Positions 4,204-60,080 are shown, counted from the stretch's first letter. The stretch: DNA of 64,000 nt from an uncultured Candidatus Saccharibacteria bacterium (GCA_964529405.1 CAZGWE010000003.1:17192-81191), one strand, 5' to 3'. A program made the numbers and translations. The notes: generated by a model not told the origin, from the letters alone.

Positions 4204-5520
4204 ATGTTAAATTTAAAACAAAACGGCATTTTCTTTGCCCAAAAAAGCCATCAACGTTTTTTTGGACCGGCGATCGATCCGGAGATGAGATTGTTTTTGG
4301 TTAATCTTTTTTGGTCTTTTTTGGGCGGCGGCATTGCTTCAGCCGGCTTGCTTTTGGTTAATATTTTAGCCGGTCGCTACATGGGGCCGAGCGAATACGG
4401 TAAGTATAATCTGGTCTTCGTTTTAAGCCAGTTCTTTATCTTATTCGTTTTCTGGGGTTTGGATATTGCCAGTATTAAAGCGATCGCTGCGAGTAAAACC
4501 AGAGCCGAGAAGGGCAAAAATTTATCCAGTGCCTCTGTCTTTTTGGTCTTAACGCTTGGACTTCTTAGTTTGATCGCTTTTCTTGTTTATAAACCGGCGG
4601 CACAATACTTTGCCCTCGATCAGTCGCTTCTCTTCATTTTGCTCATTCTTTCAATCCCGTTGACTCTTAAAGCCATGTTCGATGGCTTTATTCGCGGCCT
4701 AAGACTATTCAAAGTCCAATTTGTCGCCAAAACTCTCGAGTGTTTTACCATCATCGCTCTCTTTGTTTTAATCTTTGTCGTTCTTGATAAAAGAACTTAC
4801 GAATTTTATATCTACGTGCTGATTGCCGGAGCTTTAGTCTCTGCTCTGATTAATTTCTCTAAAGTTAAAAAATACTTCGACGGCTTTGACAAAAAATGTT
4901 TGCAAGACCAGCTATCCCATGGTAAGTTTTACTTTATTGCTACCATTATCGGCACGCTCTTCACTTCACTTGATCGATTATTAGTTGCCAAATATTTAAG
5001 CTACTACGAGCTTGGCATCTATGGTGCCTATTATACTGCTTCTGTCACGCTCACCTACCAGCTAACCCAAATGTTTATCAATGTCTTCTTGCCCTCCATC
5101 GCTCATTTGGAAAACAAAACTTTTGTTAGAAAGATTGATAATATCTTTACTAGAGCCATAATCCCTATTTACTTGACTGTTTTAGTCCTTGTTTTTGTGG
5201 CGGTAAAACTGTTTGGCGCCAGGTTTGGCCTTATCTGGGGTTATGTGTTTGGTTTTAGCCTGCTCGCCACGCTTCAGCTAATACAGGGAATCTATAATAC
5301 AATTGTCCTAACACTGTCCAAAGATTTGTACAAACGATCATTGTTATTAGTAAACATCAGCAATGTCATAATTTTTTCTACTTATATTCCCCTTGTTTAC
5401 TTTAAGCTGATCTCCATCTCTTGGATTTTGGGCATTTTAATCTTAAGCATTACCTCCGCGATAACAATCCAGCGAACCTTTATTGGCATTTCAATCAACA
5501 GGTTTAACCAAAAAACCTGA
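4204..5520 (+). CDS. polysaccharide/oligosaccharide flippase (Wzx-like, MOP superfamily)
   Basis: 438 aa with ~12 predicted hydrophobic helices and no soluble domain; positioned inside a glycan biosynthesis cluster. Confidence 0.55.
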   Translation: MLNLKQNGIFFAQKSHQRFFGPAIDPEMRLFLVNLFWSFLGGGIASAGLLLVNILAGRYMGPSEYGKYNLVFVLSQFFILFVFWGLDIASIKAIAASKTRAEKGKNLSSASVFLVLTLGLLSLIAFLVYKPAAQYFALDQSLLFILLILSIPLTLKAMFDGFIRGLRLFKVQFVAKTLECFTIIALFVLIFVVLDKRTYEFYIYVLIAGALVSALINFSKVKKYFDGFDKKCLQDQLSHGKFYFIATIIGTLFTSLDRLLVAKYLSYYELGIYGAYYTASVTLTYQLTQMFINVFLPSIAHLENKTFVRKIDNIFTRAIIPIYLTVLVLVFVAVKLFGARFGLIWGYVFGFSLLATLQLIQGIYNTIVLTLSKDLYKRSLLLVNISNVIIFSTYIPLVYFKLISISWILGILILSITSAITIQRTFIGISINRFNQKT

Positions 5521-5549
5521 AACATTTGGACTTATCGTTCGCTCTCTAC

Positions 5550-6095
5550 TGAACCCACTCTATCGGCTGCAAGCCGATAGGTTCAGCACAGCGCTAAAGC
5601 ACCCTTGCTAATTGGCGTCGAGAATTGTAAAGGAATCACCGCGTTTGTCAGCATCTTCATCTTGATTCTCGATGTATTCCATGATCATTTCATCAGTAAT
5701 GTTTCCGGAGGATACGGCGCAGTAGCCTCTTCCCCACAGATGCTGTCCCCAAAACTGTTTGTTTAATTGAGGGAATTCCTGCAGTAGCTTTCTTGATGTT
5801 TTACCCTTGATATATTGTGAGATTTTGGAGATAGATATTTGCGGGGGATAAGAGATAAAGATGTGGATGTGATCCTTGCTTATATGACCGCGGATTATTT
5901 CAATGTTATGAGCGTCGCAGACTTCACGGATTAAATCCCTGACCCTGATGCCCACCTTATTGGTTAATATTGGTTTACGATATTTGGTCGCCCATATCAG
6001 ATGACACTTTATGTCAAATTGTGTATGAGAACCATTGCGATATATTTGCATAGCCAGAGTATACCATCTTGAAAGGATCGGCTAAAGCCGAGGGG
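5550..6095 (-). mobile_element. IS200-type (tnpA-only) insertion sequence with matching subterminal hairpins
   Basis: Imperfect palindrome TGAACC-CACT-CTATCGGCT-GCA-AGCCGATAG-GTTCA at 5550-5587 and a related hairpin GGATCGGCTAAAGCCGAGG at about 6074-6092 share the ATCGGCT/AGCCGA stem. They flank tnpA as expected for IS200/IS605 LE/RE. No tnpB is present. Confidence 0.6.
5608..6051 (-). CDS. tnpA: IS200/IS605-family transposase TnpA (Y1 HUH transposase)
   Basis: 147 aa; HIHIFISYPPQ HuH motif, KYRKPIL, and catalytic-Tyr-region SQYIKGKTSRKLL, typical of IS200 TnpA. Confidence 0.85.
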   Translation of the reverse strand: MQIYRNGSHTQFDIKCHLIWATKYRKPILTNKVGIRVRDLIREVCDAHNIEIIRGHISKDHIHIFISYPPQISISKISQYIKGKTSRKLLQEFPQLNKQFWGQHLWGRGYCAVSSGNITDEMIMEYIENQDEDADKRGDSFTILDAN

Positions 6096-36198: not shown

Positions 36199-36282
36199 CC
36201 CCCTCACTAAATTACGAATTAGCAGTCCGAGTTTGATTCGTACTTTCGCGTTTTCGTGCAAATTCGCAATTTAGTGAGGGGG
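36199..36282. repeat. long imperfect palindrome (stem-loop) in rmlA-rmlC spacer
   Basis: CCCCCTCACTAAATT (36199-36213) is the reverse complement of AATTTAGTGAGGGGG (36268-36282); inner TACGAATT / AATTCGCA arms. Confidence 0.8.
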
Positions 36283-41579: not shown

Positions 41580-41773
41580 TCTCTCTAAAAAGTTAAGCTG
41601 ATTAATTACAGTTTAAAATCCTAATTGCTAATTTCTAAATCTCTTCGAGAGCCTGAGGACTCCTCAGAGCCTCGAACGGCCTAAACAGATTCTAATGTTC
41701 AAATGTCAAAACGTTTTGAGATTATTTTTTGCATTTTGATATTCTTTAGGATTTAGGATTTCGTGCTTAGGAT

Positions 41774-41813
41774 TTATTGGTATTTGCAACACATGTGTTG
41801 CAAATACCAATAA
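41774..41813. repeat. perfect 40-bp palindrome TTATTGGTATTTGCAACACATGTGTTGCAAATACCAATAA
   Basis: Read directly; centre between 41793/41794. It extends to 42 bp with one flanking pair and overlaps the stop codon and last 13 codons of the Fur paralogue. Confidence 0.9.
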
Positions 41814-42223
41814 ACATAGTACTCAACCTGCTTGATTTTGCCCATACTTTTCAGATCTTTGGCAATGCGGCGGCTGGCCTGCCAGATGTCGTAAATCTTA
41901 ACGCACTCAGTGCAGATGAAGTGCCCGTGATACTGAGTGTTGGCATCATATCGGCTCTTGCCGTCATTTGCCACCACTTGGATAATAAAGCCATTATCAA
42001 CCGAATATTTTAAATTGCGATAGACGGTTGAAATATTGATTTTAGGTAAATCCTTTTTAACTGCCTCGAATATGTCCTCTGCCGTCGGATGGTTGCTAAC
42101 ACTCCGCAGATATTGAAGTATCAAGGTACGCTGTTTGGTCAAACGATTTCCGGTATTGTTGACGATCTCTTTGATATCCAAGACATCGTCTGCACACATT
42201 TCTTCCACCATATTTACCCTCAC
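41774..42223 (-). CDS. Fur-family metalloregulator paralogue (PerR/Fur-like), atypical C-terminus
   Basis: LTKQRTLILQYL, HPTAEDIF, HGHFICTEC motifs. The last 13 codons are encoded by a perfect palindrome, and the second CxxC pair is replaced by MCC. Confidence 0.7.
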   Translation of the reverse strand: MRVNMVEEMCADDVLDIKEIVNNTGNRLTKQRTLILQYLRSVSNHPTAEDIFEAVKKDLPKINISTVYRNLKYSVDNGFIIQVVANDGKSRYDANTQYHGHFICTECVKIYDIWQASRRIAKDLKSMGKIKQVEYYVYWYLQHMCCKYQ

Positions 42224-44012: not shown

Positions 44013-44462
44013 ATGAAGAAAGAAATAACAAACAATGACATAATTGCGGCAATAGAAAAAATCGATCACAAGGTTGATCAAGTTAAGGGCGAGCTAAAAA
44101 GTGACATAATTGCGGCAACAAAAAAGACGGATGACAAAGTCGATCAGGTTAGAGGTGAGCTCAAACAGGACATCACTGATATCAAAGCGTCGCTAGCGAG
44201 TTCAACCGATACTCTCAAGTTGGACATTACCGATATTAAAAAGGGATTTACAGATCTGGCTCAAACTGCCATCAACAGTTTTACTCACATTGAAAGACGG
44301 CTTGAAAAAGTAGAAACCAACACGACATGGATGCGAAATATCTTAGAGCAAAACACCGGAACATTACTGCGCTTGGACCAAGAGCGTCTTTTTACCATCA
44401 ACCATGTCAATCGGTTGGAAAACGAAATTAAACAAATCAAAGCCCAATTAAAGATCTCTTAG
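44013..44462 (+). CDS. coiled-coil protein with internal tandem 22-23-aa repeats
   Basis: DIIAAIEKIDHKVDQVKGELKSD / DIIAATKKTDDKVDQVRGELKQD / DITDIKASL... heptad-like repeats; corresponding ~66-bp DNA tandem repeat at 44037-44171. Confidence 0.4.
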   Translation: MKKEITNNDIIAAIEKIDHKVDQVKGELKSDIIAATKKTDDKVDQVRGELKQDITDIKASLASSTDTLKLDITDIKKGFTDLAQTAINSFTHIERRLEKVETNTTWMRNILEQNTGTLLRLDQERLFTINHVNRLENEIKQIKAQLKIS

Positions 44463-54700: not shown

Positions 54701-54709
54701 TTAATTGAT

Positions 54710-54799
54710 TGGCGGAAGCGAGAGGATTCGAACCTCTGAGCCGATTGCTCGACTAACGGTTTTCGAGACCGCCACATTCGACCGCTCTGTCACGCTTCC
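54710..54799 (-). tRNA. tRNA-Ser (anticodon CGA)
   Basis: Minus-strand cloverleaf with acceptor stem GGAAGCG/CGCUUCC, anticodon stem GCGGU/ACCGU and loop CUCGAAA. It has a long variable arm, a T-arm AGAGG-UUCGAAU-CCUCU, and an encoded CCA. Confidence 0.75.
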
Positions 54800-54828
54800 C
54801 CTATTCTATCACATTCGTCCCGACCGCA

Positions 54829-55704
54829 TTAACCACCTTTTTTTCTGATGGTAATGTTTACCCCGCTTTTCTTCTCCTGTTTTTTTAGGCGCCTGTCCAT
54901 AATACGGGAGACAAAATCTTTCTTTCCAGGTTTTTCCGCCTCAACTTCATGGACAATTTCTTCGACATCAACTTTGGCCACTTCTTTTGATTCCTCTTTG
55001 CGAATTTTAATATTTTTATTGACATACCATTGCTGGGAGATAATAAACAAATTGGTCACAATCCAGTAGAGAGCAAGCGCCGCCGGCACGGTCCGGCCGA
55101 TAAAAAGCGTCATAACCGGAAAGATATAAGTCATCTGTTTCATCATCATAGCAGTCATGTCCTGCTCGCCTGCTTTGCCAGTGTTAATCTGGGGCGGCAT
55201 CATCAATAGGGAAAGAACCAGCTGGGTCAGACCGGCGATAATCGGCAAAACCCACAAATCCGGCTTGGAGAGGTCGATACCCCATAAAAAGGTATTAACG
55301 CTCTCCGGATGGGGCACGAAAGAGTAAAGCAAAGAAAAACGCGAAGTATCCAGGCCGTTACGAAAGACCTGGTATAAAACAAGAATGATCGGCAGCTGGA
55401 TCAATTGGGGCAGGCAGGAACCGAAGGGCGAGACGCCTTCCTCTTTGTACAGGTTCATTAGAGCTTTGGCCTGCTCCTGCTGGTCTTTGATTTCGGCCCG
55501 GAGTTTATTGATTTTCGGCTGCAATAATTGAAGACGCATTTGAGCCCTGGCCGCTTTGAGCGAGCTGGGCAAAAGAATAATTCTGATTAAGACGGTTAGA
55601 AGAATTATCGCCCAGCCAATCGAGTGGCCCGGCACCAGCCAAGCCAAAAAAATCAATAGGTTATAGAGAGGCTGATATAAAAGCACTTTTAAAAGGTTCT
55701 TCAT
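54829..55704 (-). CDS. yidC: membrane protein insertase YidC (short form)
   Basis: 291 aa; VLIRIILLPSSLK, PFGSCLPQLIQLPI YidC/Oxa1 motifs. Confidence 0.85.
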   Translation of the reverse strand: MKNLLKVLLYQPLYNLLIFLAWLVPGHSIGWAIILLTVLIRIILLPSSLKAARAQMRLQLLQPKINKLRAEIKDQQEQAKALMNLYKEEGVSPFGSCLPQLIQLPIILVLYQVFRNGLDTSRFSLLYSFVPHPESVNTFLWGIDLSKPDLWVLPIIAGLTQLVLSLLMMPPQINTGKAGEQDMTAMMMKQMTYIFPVMTLFIGRTVPAALALYWIVTNLFIISQQWYVNKNIKIRKEESKEVAKVDVEEIVHEVEAEKPGKKDFVSRIMDRRLKKQEKKSGVNITIRKKGG

Positions 55705-55747
55705 AGGATATCCAGATTAATTTTTTATGTTTTGTCCGCAACAAATG

Positions 55748-55842
55748 TCAGATAACGCAATTGATAATAGACAGTGGAAGATAGAAGCCGGATATTGAAA
55801 TTGGAAGATTTAATTATTTGAAATTTGGATTTGAGATTTATT
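55748..55842. repeat. origin-proximal repeat family, copy 1 (yidC-yidD spacer)
   Basis: TCAGATAACGCAATTGATAATAGACAGTGGAAGATAGAAGCCGGATATTGAAATTGGAAG ... ATTTGGATTTGAGATTTAT; ~93% identical to copy 2. Confidence 0.8.
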
Positions 55843-56065
55843 TAACAGGATCCATTCCCCCTTTTGAAAAAGGGTTGCACCGCAAGACTCGCCAAAACGC
55901 TAACCAGCCTCCATAAATCAGACCGTGCTTTATAATGGCTTGCCGGCCATACTCGGAGCAGTGGGGTTGATACCTGCAATAGCCACCCCGACGTTCGAAC
56001 CAACCCGAGTCCAAAGACAACGTCCGCTGATAAATTTCTATTAGTTTAATGACCAACTGTTTCAT
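55838..56065 (-). CDS. yidD: membrane protein insertion efficiency factor YidD
   Basis: 75 aa; CRYQPHCSEYGRQAIIKHG ... LRCNPFS. Confidence 0.8.
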   Translation of the reverse strand: MKQLVIKLIEIYQRTLSLDSGWFERRGGYCRYQPHCSEYGRQAIIKHGLIYGGWLAFWRVLRCNPFSKGGMDPVK

Positions 56066-56074
56066 TATTTATTT

Positions 56075-56185
56075 TTGATGATAGACAGTAGAAGATGGAA
56101 GATAGAATTTGAGGTTGGATGATGGAAATTGGAGTCTAGCTTCTAATCTCCAGTTTCTATTGTCTATCATCAATTATCTGAAGGC
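56075..56185. repeat. origin-proximal repeat family, rearranged hairpin-forming copy 3 (yidD-rnpA spacer)
   Basis: TGATGATAGACAGTAGAAGATGGAAGATAGAA ... GGAAATTGGAG resembles the core. The right end CTATTGTCTATCATCAATTATCTGAA is the inverted start of the element, so the two ends form a 16-bp stem. Confidence 0.6.
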
Positions 56186-56524
56186 CTTGGCTCTTGTAAG
56201 TGCTTCTCGAAGCTGTTCTTTGATCTCATCAAGTTGATATGGATATTTGAAATTACTCTTTACAATAACAACAATATCCAAGCCCGGTTTGACTAATGGC
56301 AGTATTTCCCGCGTTACCACTCTCAATCTCCTCTTAAGCGCATTTCTGCGGGTTGAGCGTTTATCAACCTTGTTGCTGATGACAAAACCAAACCGGGCCG
56401 GTGAAAGTGCCCCGGGTTTTTGGCTTACCCGCACGGACAAATTATTAACAAAAACGGGACGGGAGTTCTTGAAGACTTTCTGAAAATCCCGGCCTTTCTG
56501 CAATCTGTTTTCTCTCCTAAGCAT
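56174..56524 (-). CDS. rnpA: ribonuclease P protein component
   Basis: RLQKGRDFQKVF ... FGFVISNKVDKRSTRRNALKRRLR motifs; start taken at ATG 56522-56524 (track ORF extends to 56605). Confidence 0.8.
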   Translation of the reverse strand: MLRRENRLQKGRDFQKVFKNSRPVFVNNLSVRVSQKPGALSPARFGFVISNKVDKRSTRRNALKRRLRVVTREILPLVKPGLDIVVIVKSNFKYPYQLDEIKEQLREALTRAKAFR

Positions 56525-56647
56525 ATCGTCTCTCCCTACGTTCAATAGTAACACATGGTCTCTTCGATTACTATCCAACTTAAGCTGCTTAAGCCATAAT
56601 AACAAAAAAGAGCCGGGTAGCTCAGATTTTATTTAAACCAAGCAAAA

Positions 56648-56782
56648 TCAGGCCGCGATGACTTTTCGTCCCTTGGTCCGGCGCCGTCTTAAAACATTTC
56701 GGCCATCCAAGGTCAGCATTCTCTTTAGAAAACCGTGGATTCTTTGCCGTCTTCGCTTGTTAGGTTGAAAAGTTCTCTTCAT
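56648..56782 (-). CDS. rpmH: 50S ribosomal protein L34
   Basis: 44 aa [44 protein letters not shown], found by hand-translating the minus strand; it is below the ORF-track size cutoff. Confidence 0.9.
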
Positions 56783-56888
56783 TTCTAAGCTAGAATACAC
56801 TAATTTCGCGCTTGCGTCAAGCTGCTGATTTAAGTGATTTAGGTTATCTCATAGCGAATGCCCCGTCCAACGCCCCATTGACGTACCC

Positions 56889-56897
56889 TGTGGATAA
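56889..56897. promoter_or_regulatory. consensus DnaA box TGTGGATAA in dnaA promoter region
   Basis: Exact 9-mer match ~45 nt upstream of dnaA start. Confidence 0.5.
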
Positions 56898-56942
56898 CTT
56901 GGTATATTTTTGGTACAACTATTGCAGGGAGAACAAACGCCA

Positions 56943-58343
56943 ATGGATAAAAACGAAATATGGAAAAACGTCTTAGGCGAGCTGGAGGTCAGCATCTCTA
57001 AGCCGAACTTCGAAACCTGGTTTAGAAACACATTTCTGATTGATTACAAGAAAGGCTATTTTACAATCGGAGTGCCAACAATATTTATAGAAGACTGGCT
57101 TAGAAAGAAGCATTTGCGCGAGATACTACAAGCCTTACAGAAACAGGTTGACGACCAGGTACTGGGCATTAAATTCAAAATAGCTTCGCCTTCTCCCGAA
57201 CAAAGAATCTCTCTTGATAAAACTAAAGTTATCCACAAGCCTGTGGATAAACCCGCCGGACAAACAGCCTCAACCGGTGTCCAATTATTGCCTAAAAACA
57301 TCACCTTGAATGACGATTATAAATTTACCAATTTTATCGTCGGCCAATCAAACCAACTGGCCCATGCGGCTTCCCTGGCTGTTGCCAGCAAACCCGGCAC
57401 TATGTATAATCCGCTTTATATCTACGGCAACTCCGGATTGGGTAAAACCCATCTGATGCAAGCCATCGGCCACTCATACCTCGAAAATTATCCGGGCAAA
57501 AATGTTCTTTACGTGACGTCTGAAACATTCATTAACGAATTTATCAACGCTGTCGAAGCTGGACACGGCAAGGCCAAGAATTTCAAAGACCATTACCGCA
57601 ATGTTGATATCCTATTAATAGACGACATCCAGTTTCTCTCCAATAAAGAATCAACGCAGGAAGAATTCTTCCACACTTTTAACCATCTTCATCAAAATAA
57701 GAAGCAAGTAGTGCTTACCTCCGACCGGCCGCCCAAAGACATTAAGGGCTTGGAAGTCAGGCTAAAAACCCGTTTTGAAGGCGGCATGGTAGCCGATGTT
57801 ACCACACCGGATTTTGAAACAAGGGTGGCTATACTCAAACAAAAAGCCAAAAAGCTGAATATTGTTTTTAAAGAAGAAAAAATTGACGAAGTCCTGCATT
57901 TGATCGCCGAAAATATCCAATCTTCAATCAGGGAACTTGAGGGAACATTTACCAAAATTATTGCCACTTGCAACCTTGAGGGGAGTACGATCAACAAAGA
58001 CCGGGTTGCCTCCATTCTAAGCGGTATAATCCAAAAGAAAAAACAGGTTGTCACTCCGGAGTTAATTCTGCGGGAAGTCCATAAATTTTATCAGATTCCG
58101 CTCGAAGACATCCTGGGCAAAAAACGTACCAAGGAGATAGTTCTGCCGAGACAAATCACGATGTACCTGCTGCGCCATGAAGCTAATATGTCCTATCCGG
58201 AGATCGGCAAAAAAATCGGCGGCAAGGACCATTCAACCATTATCCACGGCTGCGAAAAGATTGAAGCCGATATTTCGGACAACCAGAGGATAAAAGAAGA
58301 CCTGGCTGTTTTGAAAGAAAAGATATACGCCATGGTACGATAA
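56943..58343 (+). CDS. dnaA: chromosomal replication initiator protein DnaA
   Basis: EIWKNVLGELEVSISKPNFETWF N-domain, GNSGLGKTHL Walker A, LLIDDIQF Walker B, C-terminal DNA-binding helix-turn-helix; start at ATG 56943. Confidence 0.95.
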   Translation: MDKNEIWKNVLGELEVSISKPNFETWFRNTFLIDYKKGYFTIGVPTIFIEDWLRKKHLREILQALQKQVDDQVLGIKFKIASPSPEQRISLDKTKVIHKPVDKPAGQTASTGVQLLPKNITLNDDYKFTNFIVGQSNQLAHAASLAVASKPGTMYNPLYIYGNSGLGKTHLMQAIGHSYLENYPGKNVLYVTSETFINEFINAVEAGHGKAKNFKDHYRNVDILLIDDIQFLSNKESTQEEFFHTFNHLHQNKKQVVLTSDRPPKDIKGLEVRLKTRFEGGMVADVTTPDFETRVAILKQKAKKLNIVFKEEKIDEVLHLIAENIQSSIRELEGTFTKIIATCNLEGSTINKDRVASILSGIIQKKKQVVTPELILREVHKFYQIPLEDILGKKRTKEIVLPRQITMYLLRHEANMSYPEIGKKIGGKDHSTIIHGCEKIEADISDNQRIKEDLAVLKEKIYAMVR

Positions 58344-58973
58344 ATCATAAAGCGTGAGATACTATTCATAGGCCGTTAGATATTTCACCTTAAAAATTAT
58401 ATGGCTTACTTATCCCCAACTTTTCAAGGCTAAATCGGGAATTAAACAAGTTAATATATTTAGTAATACTAATAGTAAGCGCTGTGGATTATGGGGAAAA
58501 GTTAAATTAAGTAATTTGAAACTTGAAATTTGAAACTTTTATTTGGGGATAAGATGGTGGATGAAGCGGTGATAAGGTGTGGATGAAACGGGGATAAGTT
58601 AAAAAATGCCAAAATCCGAATGCCAAATATCAGATAACGCAATTGATAATAGACAGTGGAAGATAGAAGCCGGATCTTGAAATTGGAAGTTTGAATTATT
58701 TGCCATTTGGATTTGGGATTTATAAATAATTTATCCACAACCAAAACGGCCTAAACGCCTTTTTTCCCCGGCTAAAATATCGCAAATAAAAATTATAATC
58801 CCAAATACAACAATTTAGCTAAATTTTTTCCCCGTTATCCACAGGTAACAAAAAAGATGGGGATAAATATTGTTTAATTGCTAAATTGTTTGCATAGCTA
58901 AAGATAAGCTTTGTTTCAAGAATGCTATTATCTTAAGATAACAATTTAACAATTGGTCGACGAAAGGAGACTC
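58344..58973. promoter_or_regulatory. candidate chromosomal replication origin (oriC) with DnaA-box cluster
   Basis: Two perfect TTATCCACA boxes (58731-58739, 58826-58834). Near-consensus boxes: TGTGGATTA 58483, GGGGATAAG x3, GTGGATGAA x2, GTGATAAGG. Position is dnaA-dnaN. AT-rich tracts present. Confidence 0.6.
58630..58723. repeat. origin-proximal repeat family, copy 2 (inside dnaA-dnaN oriC region)
   Basis: Near-identical to copy 1; ends 8 nt before a perfect DnaA box. Confidence 0.8.
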
Positions 58974-60080
58974 GTGAAAGTAACAATCCTACAATCGAAT
59001 TTTGCCAAAGGCTTAAACCAGGTTTCGCGCGTTGTTGGAAACAGGACAACCCTGCCGGTTCTGTCCAATATTTTAATTTCAGCCAAAAAAGGCCATATCA
59101 CGCTCTCCGCCACCGATCTGGAAATCGGAGTAACGACAAAAATACCTGGCAAGGTTGACAAGGAGGGCGACCTGACCGTCCCCGCCCGTCTTCTTTCGGA
59201 CTTTGTCTTAAATAACAGCGATGAAACAATCGAAGTTACGGCCGAAGAAACCAAGATGAAACTCAAATCGGAGAGGTTTGAGGCCAATATCGGCGGCATC
59301 TCGGCCGAGGAGTTTCCAACTATACCGAACACAAATCAGGAGTCGTTTTGTTCAATCAAGAAGGAAGACTTTATTGAAGCGCTTAAAAAGGTGGCAATCG
59401 CCCCGGCTCACGACGAGACAAGGCCGGTCTTGGCCGGTATTTATTTTCAGTTTGAGGCTAAAAATCTGGTTTTAGCCGCGACTGATTCGTATCGCCTGGC
59501 TGAAAATAGGCTGGAGTTGGAAAAGGAGGCCGGCGAAAAGAAGATGATCGTTCCCACCAAGACCGTGACCGAAGTTTTGCGTCTGGCCGGCGGGGCGGAG
59601 GGTTTATCCGAAATTAAGCTGTCTTCGACTGAAAATCAGGTCTCGTTCATCATCGGCGAAACAGAAGTAGTCTCGCGCGTCATTGAAGGCGCTTTTCCCA
59701 ATTATAGCCAAATTATTCCCGCTTCATCCAAAATTACAGCTGTCGCCAGCCGGGCCGAACTTGTCTCGGCAGTTAAAATGGCCTCCCTTTTTGCTAAAGA
59801 CGCCGCCAATAATATTAAGATTACGGTGGCGCCAAAAGAGCTTTTAATCAGTTCGGCCATGGCCCAGGCCGGCGGCGCTTCGGCCAAAGTCAAAGCTTCG
59901 GTTAAAGGCGAGGAAGTCTCTATCTCATTTAACGCCCGCTACATCCTCGAGATGCTGCAGGTTGTTTCTTCCGATGAAATCACTTTAAAATTTAACGACA
60001 GCGCCTCCTCCGGCTTGATCGAATCGGCCAAGGACAAAGGCTTTATCTACCTGGTTATGCCGTTGAGGATGGAGAATTAA
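58974..60080 (+). CDS. dnaN: DNA polymerase III beta sliding clamp
   Basis: Three-domain clamp pattern. GTG start at 58974 is preceded by RBS AAAGGAG; the track uses TTG at 58953. Confidence 0.9.
   Translation: MKVTILQSNFAKGLNQVSRVVGNRTTLPVLSNILISAKKGHITLSATDLEIGVTTKIPGKVDKEGDLTVPARLLSDFVLNNSDETIEVTAEETKMKLKSERFEANIGGISAEEFPTIPNTNQESFCSIKKEDFIEALKKVAIAPAHDETRPVLAGIYFQFEAKNLVLAATDSYRLAENRLELEKEAGEKKMIVPTKTVTEVLRLAGGAEGLSEIKLSSTENQVSFIIGETEVVSRVIEGAFPNYSQIIPASSKITAVASRAELVSAVKMASLFAKDAANNIKITVAPKELLISSAMAQAGGASAKVKASVKGEEVSISFNARYILEMLQVVSSDEITLKFNDSASSGLIESAKDKGFIYLVMPLRMEN

Follow-up and report, generated by a model that had tools for sequence, protein, structure and literature searches.

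Enterobacterial repetitive intergenic consensus (ERIC) elements and Correia elements are imperfect palindromes of 100-150 nt that are non-coding, lie in transcribed operon spacers, have sequences that are conserved between species and are polymorphic for presence or absence. The 23S rRNA gene of Coxiella burnetii carries an intervening sequence (IVS), which is a selfish 428-nt element with terminal inverted repeats and an open reading frame (ORF) of the PF05635 family, is excised by RNase III and contains, in the purine-rich 5' arm, the heptamer GACAGAT repeated in tandem (PMC4990558). In bacteria belonging to the candidate phyla radiation (CPR), the rRNA genes hold many short inserts, both ORF-less and encoding an intervening-sequence protein (IVP) (PMC11270868). 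Heptanucleotide arrays, such as the short tandemly repeated repetitive (STRR) sequences of cyanobacteria and the TAACTGA arrays of Beggiatoaceae and cyanobacteria, are intergenic, often lie upstream of start codons and are patchily distributed, suggesting horizontal spread (PMC4679880). The TIGR array, short for tandem interspaced guide RNA, is built of units that are 36 nt long and have UG/CCA boxes as well as dual spacers, and it adjoins a Tas gene with a Nop domain (PMC12045711). Here, we describe a repeat that is present in three copies around the replication origin (oriC) in a 64,000-nt stretch of a CPR genome (GCA_964529405.1 CAZGWE010000003.1:17192-81191), which is called the window below. 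All three copies belonged to a family of hairpins with a 7-nt period that was also found in operon spacers of other CPR lineages. On balance, the evidence favored a selfish or neutral dispersed hairpin that resembles an IVS or a miniature inverted-repeat transposable element (MITE).

Three copies of a heptad-periodic repeat

The original prediction described a repeat of about 95 bp with two copies that were about 93% identical. This similarity was confirmed for a slightly longer unit of 100 nt, as copy 1 (55742-55841, plus strand) and copy 2 (58624-58723, plus strand) were 93% identical and had the same orientation (BLAST E 6e-37), with one difference in the first 52 nt and six in the last 48 nt. 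Copy 1 occupied the yidC-yidD spacer and consisted of a 19-nt leader (CAAATGTCAGATAACGCAA), a 45-nt arm (55761-55805) and degenerate heptads that continued to the yidD stop codon, which copy 1 overlapped. Copy 2, with its arm at 58643-58687, was located in the dnaA-dnaN spacer and thus in oriC. Copy 3 (56075-56173, no strand assigned) was a two-armed hairpin in the yidD-rnpA spacer, with the left arm at 56075-56119 and the right arm at 56134-56173. It was an imperfect palindrome in which 33-nt arms were 82% complementary, and it was 75% identical to copies 1 and 2 across 53 nt. Copy 3 adjoined the rnpA stop codon, and 9 nt separated its end from the ATG of yidD. It had been described earlier as a rearranged copy with inverted termini that form a 16-bp stem. 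The inverted termini and the stem were found, the basal stem being 19-20 bp long when G.T pairs were counted, but the copy is not rearranged, since it has the canonical two-armed form of the family. Instead, copies 1 and 2 are atypical one-armed derivatives and copies of each other, and they most likely arose by local duplication of a single arm.

No fourth copy of the family was found in the other ~60 kb of the window. The only ORF that overlapped any of the copies (58502-58744) had no Pfam match and was not common to the other copies. The sequence TCAGATAA was present beside copy 1, beside copy 2 and at the right end of copy 3, where it represents the C-terminus of RnpA and the stop codon. 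The arm of copy 1 was closer to the left arm of copy 3 than to the right arm.

The arms of copies 1 and 2, the left arm of copy 3 and the reverse complement of its right arm had in common a purine-rich sequence of 45 nt with the consensus TTGATGA TAGACAA TAGAAAC TGGAAGC TAGAAYT TGAAGTT GGA. The arm is thus composed of degenerate heptads of the type TRGAnnn, with a family unit of about 45-60 nt, and the whole element consists of an arm and its inverted complement, which gives a hairpin of 100-135 nt. The identity at a lag of 7 nt was 0.51-0.59 per window arm (z 3.8-5.1), with values of 0.51 for copy 1 (z 3.8), 0.54 for copy 2 (z 5.0) and 0.59 in each arm of copy 3. When the arms were pooled, the lag-7 identity was 0.58 compared to about 0.22 at other lags. 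Tandem Repeats Finder (TRF) assigned a period of 7 to 55816-55839, 56080-56107 and 58516-58538, with 75-87% matches. In an unbiased lag-7 scan of the window, the top four tracts were copy 2, copy 3, an oriC tract at 58476-58538 and copy 1, and five of the six best tracts were found at 55.7-58.7 kb, the sole other one being 41727-41789. The presence of stop codons in all three frames was rejected as a design feature, as it was a weak tendency on one strand.

Family members and empty sites in other genomes

When metagenomes were scanned with a degenerate pattern of 20 nt from the arm, 45 loci were obtained. Most of them were chance matches, but about seven independent loci from other Patescibacteria contained complete hairpins of the same family (comparison loci of this analysis carry L-numbers). 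A profile matched both hairpin arms in L043/L006/L033, L021, L022, L037/L024/L027/L032 and L029, and left arms in L031 and L010. The arm profile matched copy 1 with an E-value of 1.7e-9, and the family profile also matched copy 2 and both arms of copy 3. A further profile was built only from metagenome right arms, which had never served as bait, and its top four matches in the window were the left arm of copy 3, copy 2 (E 2.8e-6), copy 1 (E 1.3e-4) and the right arm of copy 3, with E-values from 1.4e-6 to 1.1e-3. Because this profile recovered all four window arms, the homology is not a bait artefact. The host of L037 is Microgenomates-like and that of the window is Berkelbacteria-like, and the family therefore spans distinct CPR lineages. 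Arms from different CPR lineages were as alike as the arms inside the window. Conservation between elements was heptad-periodic outside the bait region, with 1.5-1.8 bits at the T, G and A phases versus 0.6-1.0 bits at the three linker phases, and the heptads of one arm differed from each other while each of them was kept across elements.

The elements in other genomes were found in the rplB-rpsS spacer of the S10 operon (the L037 group), just ahead of nusG (L021), downstream of rplL in the stretch that separates a promoter-like site from the ribosome-binding site of a small helix-turn-helix (HTH) gene (the L043 group), immediately past the stop codon of a tetratricopeptide repeat (TPR) gene (L029/L181) and adjoining cohesin-domain genes (L022, L031). 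In a tRNA-Ala(ggc)/tRNA-Ala(cgc) cluster (L181 3016-3490, corresponding to L182 4730-5200), every ~100-nt spacer was a related heptad hairpin with weak matches to the arm profile. The elements abutted stop codons and stood 8-12 nt ahead of start codons in highly expressed operons, and their orientation relative to transcription and to the flanking genes was inconsistent. The genes dnaA, dnaN, yidC and rnpA were absent from all of these family loci outside the window. Two scans of viral contigs gave no family member by profile, and a scan of genome contigs with a 22-mer gave a single chance match, which was inside an ORF. We found no paper describing such elements in CPR bacteria, and as far as could be found the heptad-periodic hairpin family has not been described before.

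Comparisons with relatives showed sites that lack the element. In the L037 clade, the rplB-rpsS spacer was 155 nt long and consisted of 13 nt, the 133-nt element and 9 nt. In loci without the element, the same spacer was 2 nt (L185, in which RplB was 86% identical) or 8 nt (L186), or the two genes overlapped (L187). In the syntenic L048, which comes from a relative of the window organism, 5 nt separated rnpA and yidD, compared to 108 nt in the window, and the yidC-yidD spacer of L050 was ~36 nt. A sister hairpin, composed of GTTCAAA-type heptads, was located between rpsS and rplV in L172-L178; the hairpin was missing from L179 and L180, which had a 3-nt spacer and in which RplB was at least 90% identical. 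The filled L172 and the empty L185, the sole pair of this kind for the family, showed no target-site duplication at the junction, where the sequences have diverged to an extent that a 2-nt duplication could be missed. Likewise, no target-site duplication was seen for the sister family at rpsS-rplV. Judged by these spacer comparisons, the three window copies are lineage-specific insertions into spacers that are nearly empty in relatives. The suggestion of a small repetitive or mobile element was in this way supported, both by the same 45-nt arm in non-orthologous spacers of Patescibacteria and by the empty sites in relatives. The long spacers noted in the original prediction, 130-110 bp, were measured as 133 nt between yidC and yidD and 108 nt between yidD and rnpA. 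Fillers of ~100 nt explain such unusually long spacers in compact CPR operons, and they should not be annotated as origin elements.

Many further arrays and hairpins made of heptads, the units of which are unrelated (AACTTTG, TCAGAWA, ATTAGAA, GTTATTA, AAATCCT), were observed in the spacers of ribosomal-protein and origin-region operons of CPR contigs (L037 2927-2999, 4150-4219, 6654-6713 and 7869-7947; L043 1232-1330 and 9025-9104; L047 1-63; L048 8659-8895). The window itself contained a second hairpin from another heptad family (41600-41785, no strand assigned; RNA fold -51.1 kcal/mol, z -4.15), with AAATCCT/AATTTCT-type heptads and a GC-rich loop insert, between fur-family and rubredoxin genes identified with Pfam. 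This hairpin was similar to the hairpin in the yidC-yidD spacer of L048. The heptad-hairpin architecture is general, and its sequence families are many. Adjoining the second hairpin, a perfect palindrome of 21+21 nt (TTTATTGGTATTTGCAACACA/TGTGTTGCAAATACCAATAAA; 41773-41814) overlapped the 3' end of the fur-family gene. Two further repeats of the window were recorded, namely an 84-nt hairpin at 36199-36282 with 26-nt arms that were 92% complementary (CCCCCTCACTAAATT...), located in the spacer between dTDP-sugar epimerase and nucleotidyl-transferase genes and unrelated in sequence to the heptad family, and a direct tandem duplication of 66 nt, 79% identical, at 44030-44161 within a predicted ORF of 149 aa. 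Among the comparison loci, the contig terminus at L183 3418-3440 was Illumina adapter sequence (AGATCGGAAGAGCACACGTCTGA), an assembly artefact in the public record.

The origin region and copy 2

The host of the window is a Patescibacterium near Berkelbacteria, and its best DnaA homolog was 70% identical. Pfam searches placed yidC (54829-55704), yidD (55838-56065, stop codon 55838-55840), rnpA (56174-~56524, stop codon 56174-56176) and rpmH (56648-56782) on the minus strand, and dnaA (56943-58343) and dnaN (58975-60080) on the plus strand together with recF. The cumulative GC skew had its minimum at ~58-60 kb of the window, DnaA boxes were clustered in the dnaA-dnaN spacer and gene orientation diverged at rpmH-dnaA, and for these three reasons the origin assignment is sound. 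Next to yidC, the region 54701-54828 contained a tRNA-Ser(cga) gene; L048 and L050 instead had a jag/R3H gene in the interval that separates yidC from the T2SSE ATPase gene.

A candidate unwinding core was identified at 58461-58491 on the plus strand. It comprised six NAN trios (TAG TAA TAC TAA TAG TAA; 58461-58478) and, behind a GCGC spacer, the DnaA box TGTGGATTA (58483-58491), which had one mismatch. The DnaA-trio criterion that we applied asked for three or more NAN trios no further than 16 bp from a DnaA box and for conservation in oriC, and the core conformed to the rules for basal unwinding systems (PMC8287927). The same module of trios and box (TAGTAAnAnTAATAGTAAG-GC-TGTGGAT), followed by a forward DnaA-box array, was common to the window and to L047, L048 and L050. 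The core is probably the unwinding site of this CPR oriC, and the real unwinding core may accordingly be placed at 58461-58491. To its right lay a short heptad array, TTGAAAC repeated 3.3 times (58516-58538, plus strand; TRF period 7 with 87% matches), which was the third-best lag-7 tract, belonged to the same sequence class with a different unit and was not present in relatives. The forward DnaA-box array (58544-58605, minus strand) had a TRF period of 22 nt with 2.4 copies (GGGGATAAG..GGTGGATGA..) and boxes at 58544 and 58578. This array, with paired weak boxes at 58545-58598, aligned with the relatives and adjoined copy 2 on the left. The perfect DnaA box TTATCCACA (58731-58739, plus strand) is a reverse box.

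As claimed originally, copy 2 ended 8 nt before this perfect box (58723 compared to 58731). Copy 2 was located between oppositely oriented boxes, with the forward array on its left and the reverse box on its right, and the core ~130 nt to the left was untouched. The DnaA-box prediction gave boxes around copy 2, at 58544, 58578 and 58731, but none within the arm. Nothing similar to copy 2 was found in oriC of the three nearest DnaA relatives, which had ~20-40 nt at the equivalent place and a dnaA-dnaN spacer of 395-452 nt compared to 631 nt in the window. The reading of copy 2 as a DnaA-trio or basal unwinding element was rejected, because its period is 7 and not 3, it is free of boxes and it is not conserved in relatives. 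A DnaA-trio reading of the GAAGATAGAAG core was rejected because of the same 7-nt period. Copy 2 appears to sit in a permissive gap of oriC and not to be part of the conserved initiation machinery. Separately, two perfect inverted DnaA boxes (TTATCCACA-AGCC-TGTGGATAA) were found in the dnaA coding sequence at 57229-57250, ~286 nt past the start codon. The same inverted-box motif was present at the same offset in dnaA of L047 (487-508) and L050 (10287-10308), in which the proteins were only 68-70% identical, and this suggests a conserved DnaA-binding or autoregulatory site within the gene.

Competing explanations and known systems

The explanation that we favor on balance is that the family spreads as a selfish or neutral element of the IVS, MITE or ERIC kind and that a hairpin in the transcript makes its insertion into operons tolerable. 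At the RNA level, we infer that the long stem, once transcribed, would fold on itself within the operon mRNA and that RNase III probably cuts or removes it. With 19-45 bp, the stems have in principle the length that RNase III needs. Self-folding and removal by RNase III would explain how the element is tolerated in tRNA clusters and in essential operons whose genes are tightly packed. The absence of a target-site duplication is compatible with transposition of the single-strand or HUH type and also with template switching. The element presumably has no dedicated role in replication initiation. When folded as RNA, copy 3 gave -43.5 kcal/mol on the plus strand (z -7.0 compared to shuffled sequences) and -31.4 kcal/mol on the minus strand (z -6.4), and copies 1 and 2 were unstructured on either strand (z -0.8 to +1.35).

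Several observations weigh against this explanation. The argument that folding confers tolerance does not apply to copies 1 and 2, because they form no hairpin. In six elements there were 69 single-arm changes compared to 3 compensated ones, and pairing between the two arms of one element (0.71) was not better than pairing between arms of different elements (0.75); structural selection on the stem is thus not visible. In addition, 19 nt of the 100-nt unit of copies 1 and 2 fall outside the family boundary, no transposase could be tied to the family, the elements here are not inside rRNA genes and all three window copies lie no more than 3 kb from oriC. Finally, the similarity of left arms among distant hosts was ~0.83, which is high for neutral DNA and heptad-periodic, and it could mean a sequence-specific function. 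Periodic conservation without compensation implies that the sequence is conserved and not the pairing. Two origins would fit such conservation, namely a recent spread that started from conserved master copies and a recognition unit that is repeated.

The second of these options would make the heptad arm, TRGAnnn repeated 6-8 times, a functional array that is recognized by an oligomeric protein binding DNA or RNA. The array would have a cis-regulatory role (for example in intercistronic processing, stability or attenuation) and would be kept by selection. We consider this possible but unlikely. It is in line with the heptad-periodic conservation across hosts, with the lack of compensatory change, which indicates that sequence rather than structure is conserved, with arms that are as similar between CPR lineages as within the window, and with the defined placement at stop and start codons of highly expressed operons. 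In addition, one member encloses a gene for a protein of the pentameric nucleic-acid-binding type, PF05635, and CspB binds heptamer arrays with one protein per unit according to work cited in PMC4679880. However, no gene for a candidate binder was found beside the window copies, presence is sporadic and close relatives manage with spacers of 2-5 nt, orientation is inconsistent and the counts of G.U pairs, 24 and 19, reveal no bias to either strand, and equivalent spacers hold many heptad hairpins with unrelated units. If the periodic conservation does reflect a binder, it would point to a new RNA- or DNA-binding system in reduced genomes. A more specific version, which we find rather improbable, is that the arm is recognized by an oligomeric protein such as the pentameric PF05635 (S23p/Avd-type), so that an IVS-type system extends beyond the rRNA genes in CPR bacteria into operon spacers, tRNA clusters and oriC. 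The one-armed copies 1 and 2 would then recruit the protein or pair over a long range, for example copy 1 with the right arm of copy 3 so as to enclose yidD, as in L010. In that locus (5242-5945), a left arm (5242-5306) pairs with a right arm (5730-5800) ~420 nt away over 65 nt (-46.9 kcal/mol), and the two arms enclose a PF05635 23S_rRNA_IVP gene (E 1.9e-24) and an inner left arm, with a second complete hairpin directly downstream. The arrangement of copy 1, yidD (minus strand) and the left and right arms of copy 3 in the window parallels the order of arm, small gene and hairpin in L010. On the strand with the mRNA sense, the purine arm of copy 3 paired with copy 1 at -30.7 kcal/mol and with its local partner at -33.7 kcal/mol, compared to -18.3 +/- 3.6 kcal/mol for shuffled sequences. 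A search of the window with tblastn did not find PF05635.

The remaining explanations do without a dispersed element or assign it another role. Local slippage of a heptanucleotide simple sequence repeat (SSR) combined with inverted duplication would give a sequence that is neither mobile nor functional, with a cross-genome similarity due to convergent low complexity. Polymerase slippage is the origin given for heptanucleotide repeats, the commonest long SSRs in bacteria (Mrazek 2007, cited in PMC4679880). In addition, CPR spacers contain heptad units of many kinds, and the 19 extra nt in copies 1 and 2 suggest a segmental duplication rather than a clean transposition. Nevertheless, the 45-60-nt arm is homologous position by position across unrelated loci and hosts, with E-values down to 1e-6 from an independent profile, the heptads differ within an arm while each is conserved across elements, and entire inserts of 133-155 nt are found at junctions that are otherwise 2 nt, which makes slippage doubtful as an explanation for the family. 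A module of the origin, in which the arms bind an initiation or origin-organizing factor and their placement on both sides of dnaA has a function, for example in looping or in insulating oriC, is very improbable. It would account for the clustering of the copies at 3 of ~65 gene junctions, all among 5 consecutive ones (roughly P 0.01 by manual count), as well as for the two additional heptad tracts at 55.7-58.7 kb, the DnaA boxes that flank copy 2, the direct repeats of copies 1 and 2 that bracket yidD-rnpA-rpmH-dnaA and the GC-skew minimum that places the origin at ~58-60 kb. The original prediction had proposed a preference for the origin, or an origin-associated protein-binding module; the preference was not supported outside the window, nor was the module supported. 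Elsewhere, the members reside in operons for ribosomal proteins and in others that have no dnaA in their vicinity, related hairpins are found in tRNA clusters, and tight clusters of copies occur away from any origin too (L010). The three nearest relatives have the conserved trio-box core in their oriC but no member of the family; furthermore, the period is 7 nt instead of the 3 nt of a trio, and the arm has no DnaA box. The most remote of the explanations that we weighed is that the copies code for, or belong to, a structured small RNA or a leader of the riboswitch type that has a function specific to one strand. Copy 3 does fold far better than shuffled sequences, and the L043 element is positioned between a promoter-like site and a ribosome-binding site. 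However, there was no covariation and copies 1 and 2 are unstructured, and Rfam gave no match on the repeats even at E-values up to 10; tRNAs were its sole matches in the family loci, and rRNA was present neither in the region of the repeats nor in any of eight such loci. Copies 1 and 2 also share an orientation although their flanking genes run on opposite strands. Signals for promoters and terminators did not exceed the shuffled expectation, and both the G.U versus A.C asymmetry and the fold energy were inconsistent with respect to gene direction, leaving a sense-strand RNA unsupported.

The family was also compared with known systems. An integron attC site was rejected, since the contexts are conserved operons and not cassettes and since inspection of the ends revealed no GTTRRRY core sites. 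A TIGR array was rejected as well, as the period is 7 nt and the neighbors are yidC, yidD, rnpA, dnaA and dnaN. The likeness is greater to repetitive extragenic palindromes (REPs) and their hairpin-forming doublets (REPINs), in which two inverted units give a hairpin of ~100 nt, REP singlets parallel the one-armed copies and, as here, no target-site duplication is left. Furthermore, distant Y1_Tnp genes resembling REP-associated tyrosine transposases (RAYTs) are located 0.3 kb (L043) and 2.3 kb (L029) from two members. In contrast to REPs, the arms of the family are not palindromic and the GTAG is not conserved, being either GTAG or ATAG. The only curated match of the Y1_Tnp genes was the REP-associated tyrosine transposase model, with 38 bits compared to a cut-off of 80 bits. 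The gene, of 228-230 aa (L043 2727-3413, L029 2791-3483), is flanked on both sides by GC-rich hairpins of its own (CTGCAAGGTCTCTCCCTGCAG), which are unrelated to the family and thus not cognate arms. It was present in L029 and L181 and precisely absent from the otherwise collinear L182 (1715-1925), in which the element was retained, and because of this clean absence the gene and its hairpins appear to be a mobile unit. Neither the gene nor the GC hairpin was found in the window. Since a RAYT or Y1 transposase comes with hairpins of its own and its occurrence does not follow that of the element, it was rejected as the mobilizer and kept only as a lead. Membership in the REP/REPIN-RAYT system was rejected for want of a palindromic GTAG unit and a cognate RAYT.

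Compared to MITE-like repeats, namely the ERIC elements or intergenic repeat units (IRUs) of enterobacteria, the Correia elements of Neisseria and the Rickettsia palindromic elements (RPEs), the window family shares the size, the non-coding palindrome, the operon spacers, the conservation of sequence between species and the polymorphism. Terminal inverted repeats, small size and lack of coding capacity were all present as in MITEs, whereas the target-site duplication was not. The family also differs in that no autonomous partner was found, as neither the window nor the ~190 loci contained an element with the same termini and a transposase, and in that its arms are heptad-periodic with a strong purine/pyrimidine asymmetry. 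With heptanucleotide arrays, the window family shares the 7-nt period, the intergenic and non-coding nature, the frequent position just ahead of start codons and the patchy distribution. Those arrays, however, are near-perfect direct repeats of a single unit, whereas here the units are degenerate, distinct, individually conserved and usually paired in a hairpin. The comparison with IVSs showed inverted-repeat termini and a long stem in copy 3 and the metagenome members, though not in copies 1 and 2, together with a sporadic and apparently horizontal distribution, typically in reduced genomes. In contrast to IVSs, the window copies are ORF-free and two of the three are one-armed, and they lie between protein genes and in oriC instead of in 23S or 16S rRNA genes, with related hairpins between tRNA genes. 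The arms are composed of heptads, as in the Coxiella IVS, and in L010, a tight cluster of family elements away from any origin and with no rRNA in the locus, a PF05635 gene is located between such arms. The heptad family would thus link the IVSs of rRNA genes to a broader class of elements that colonize protein and tRNA operons.

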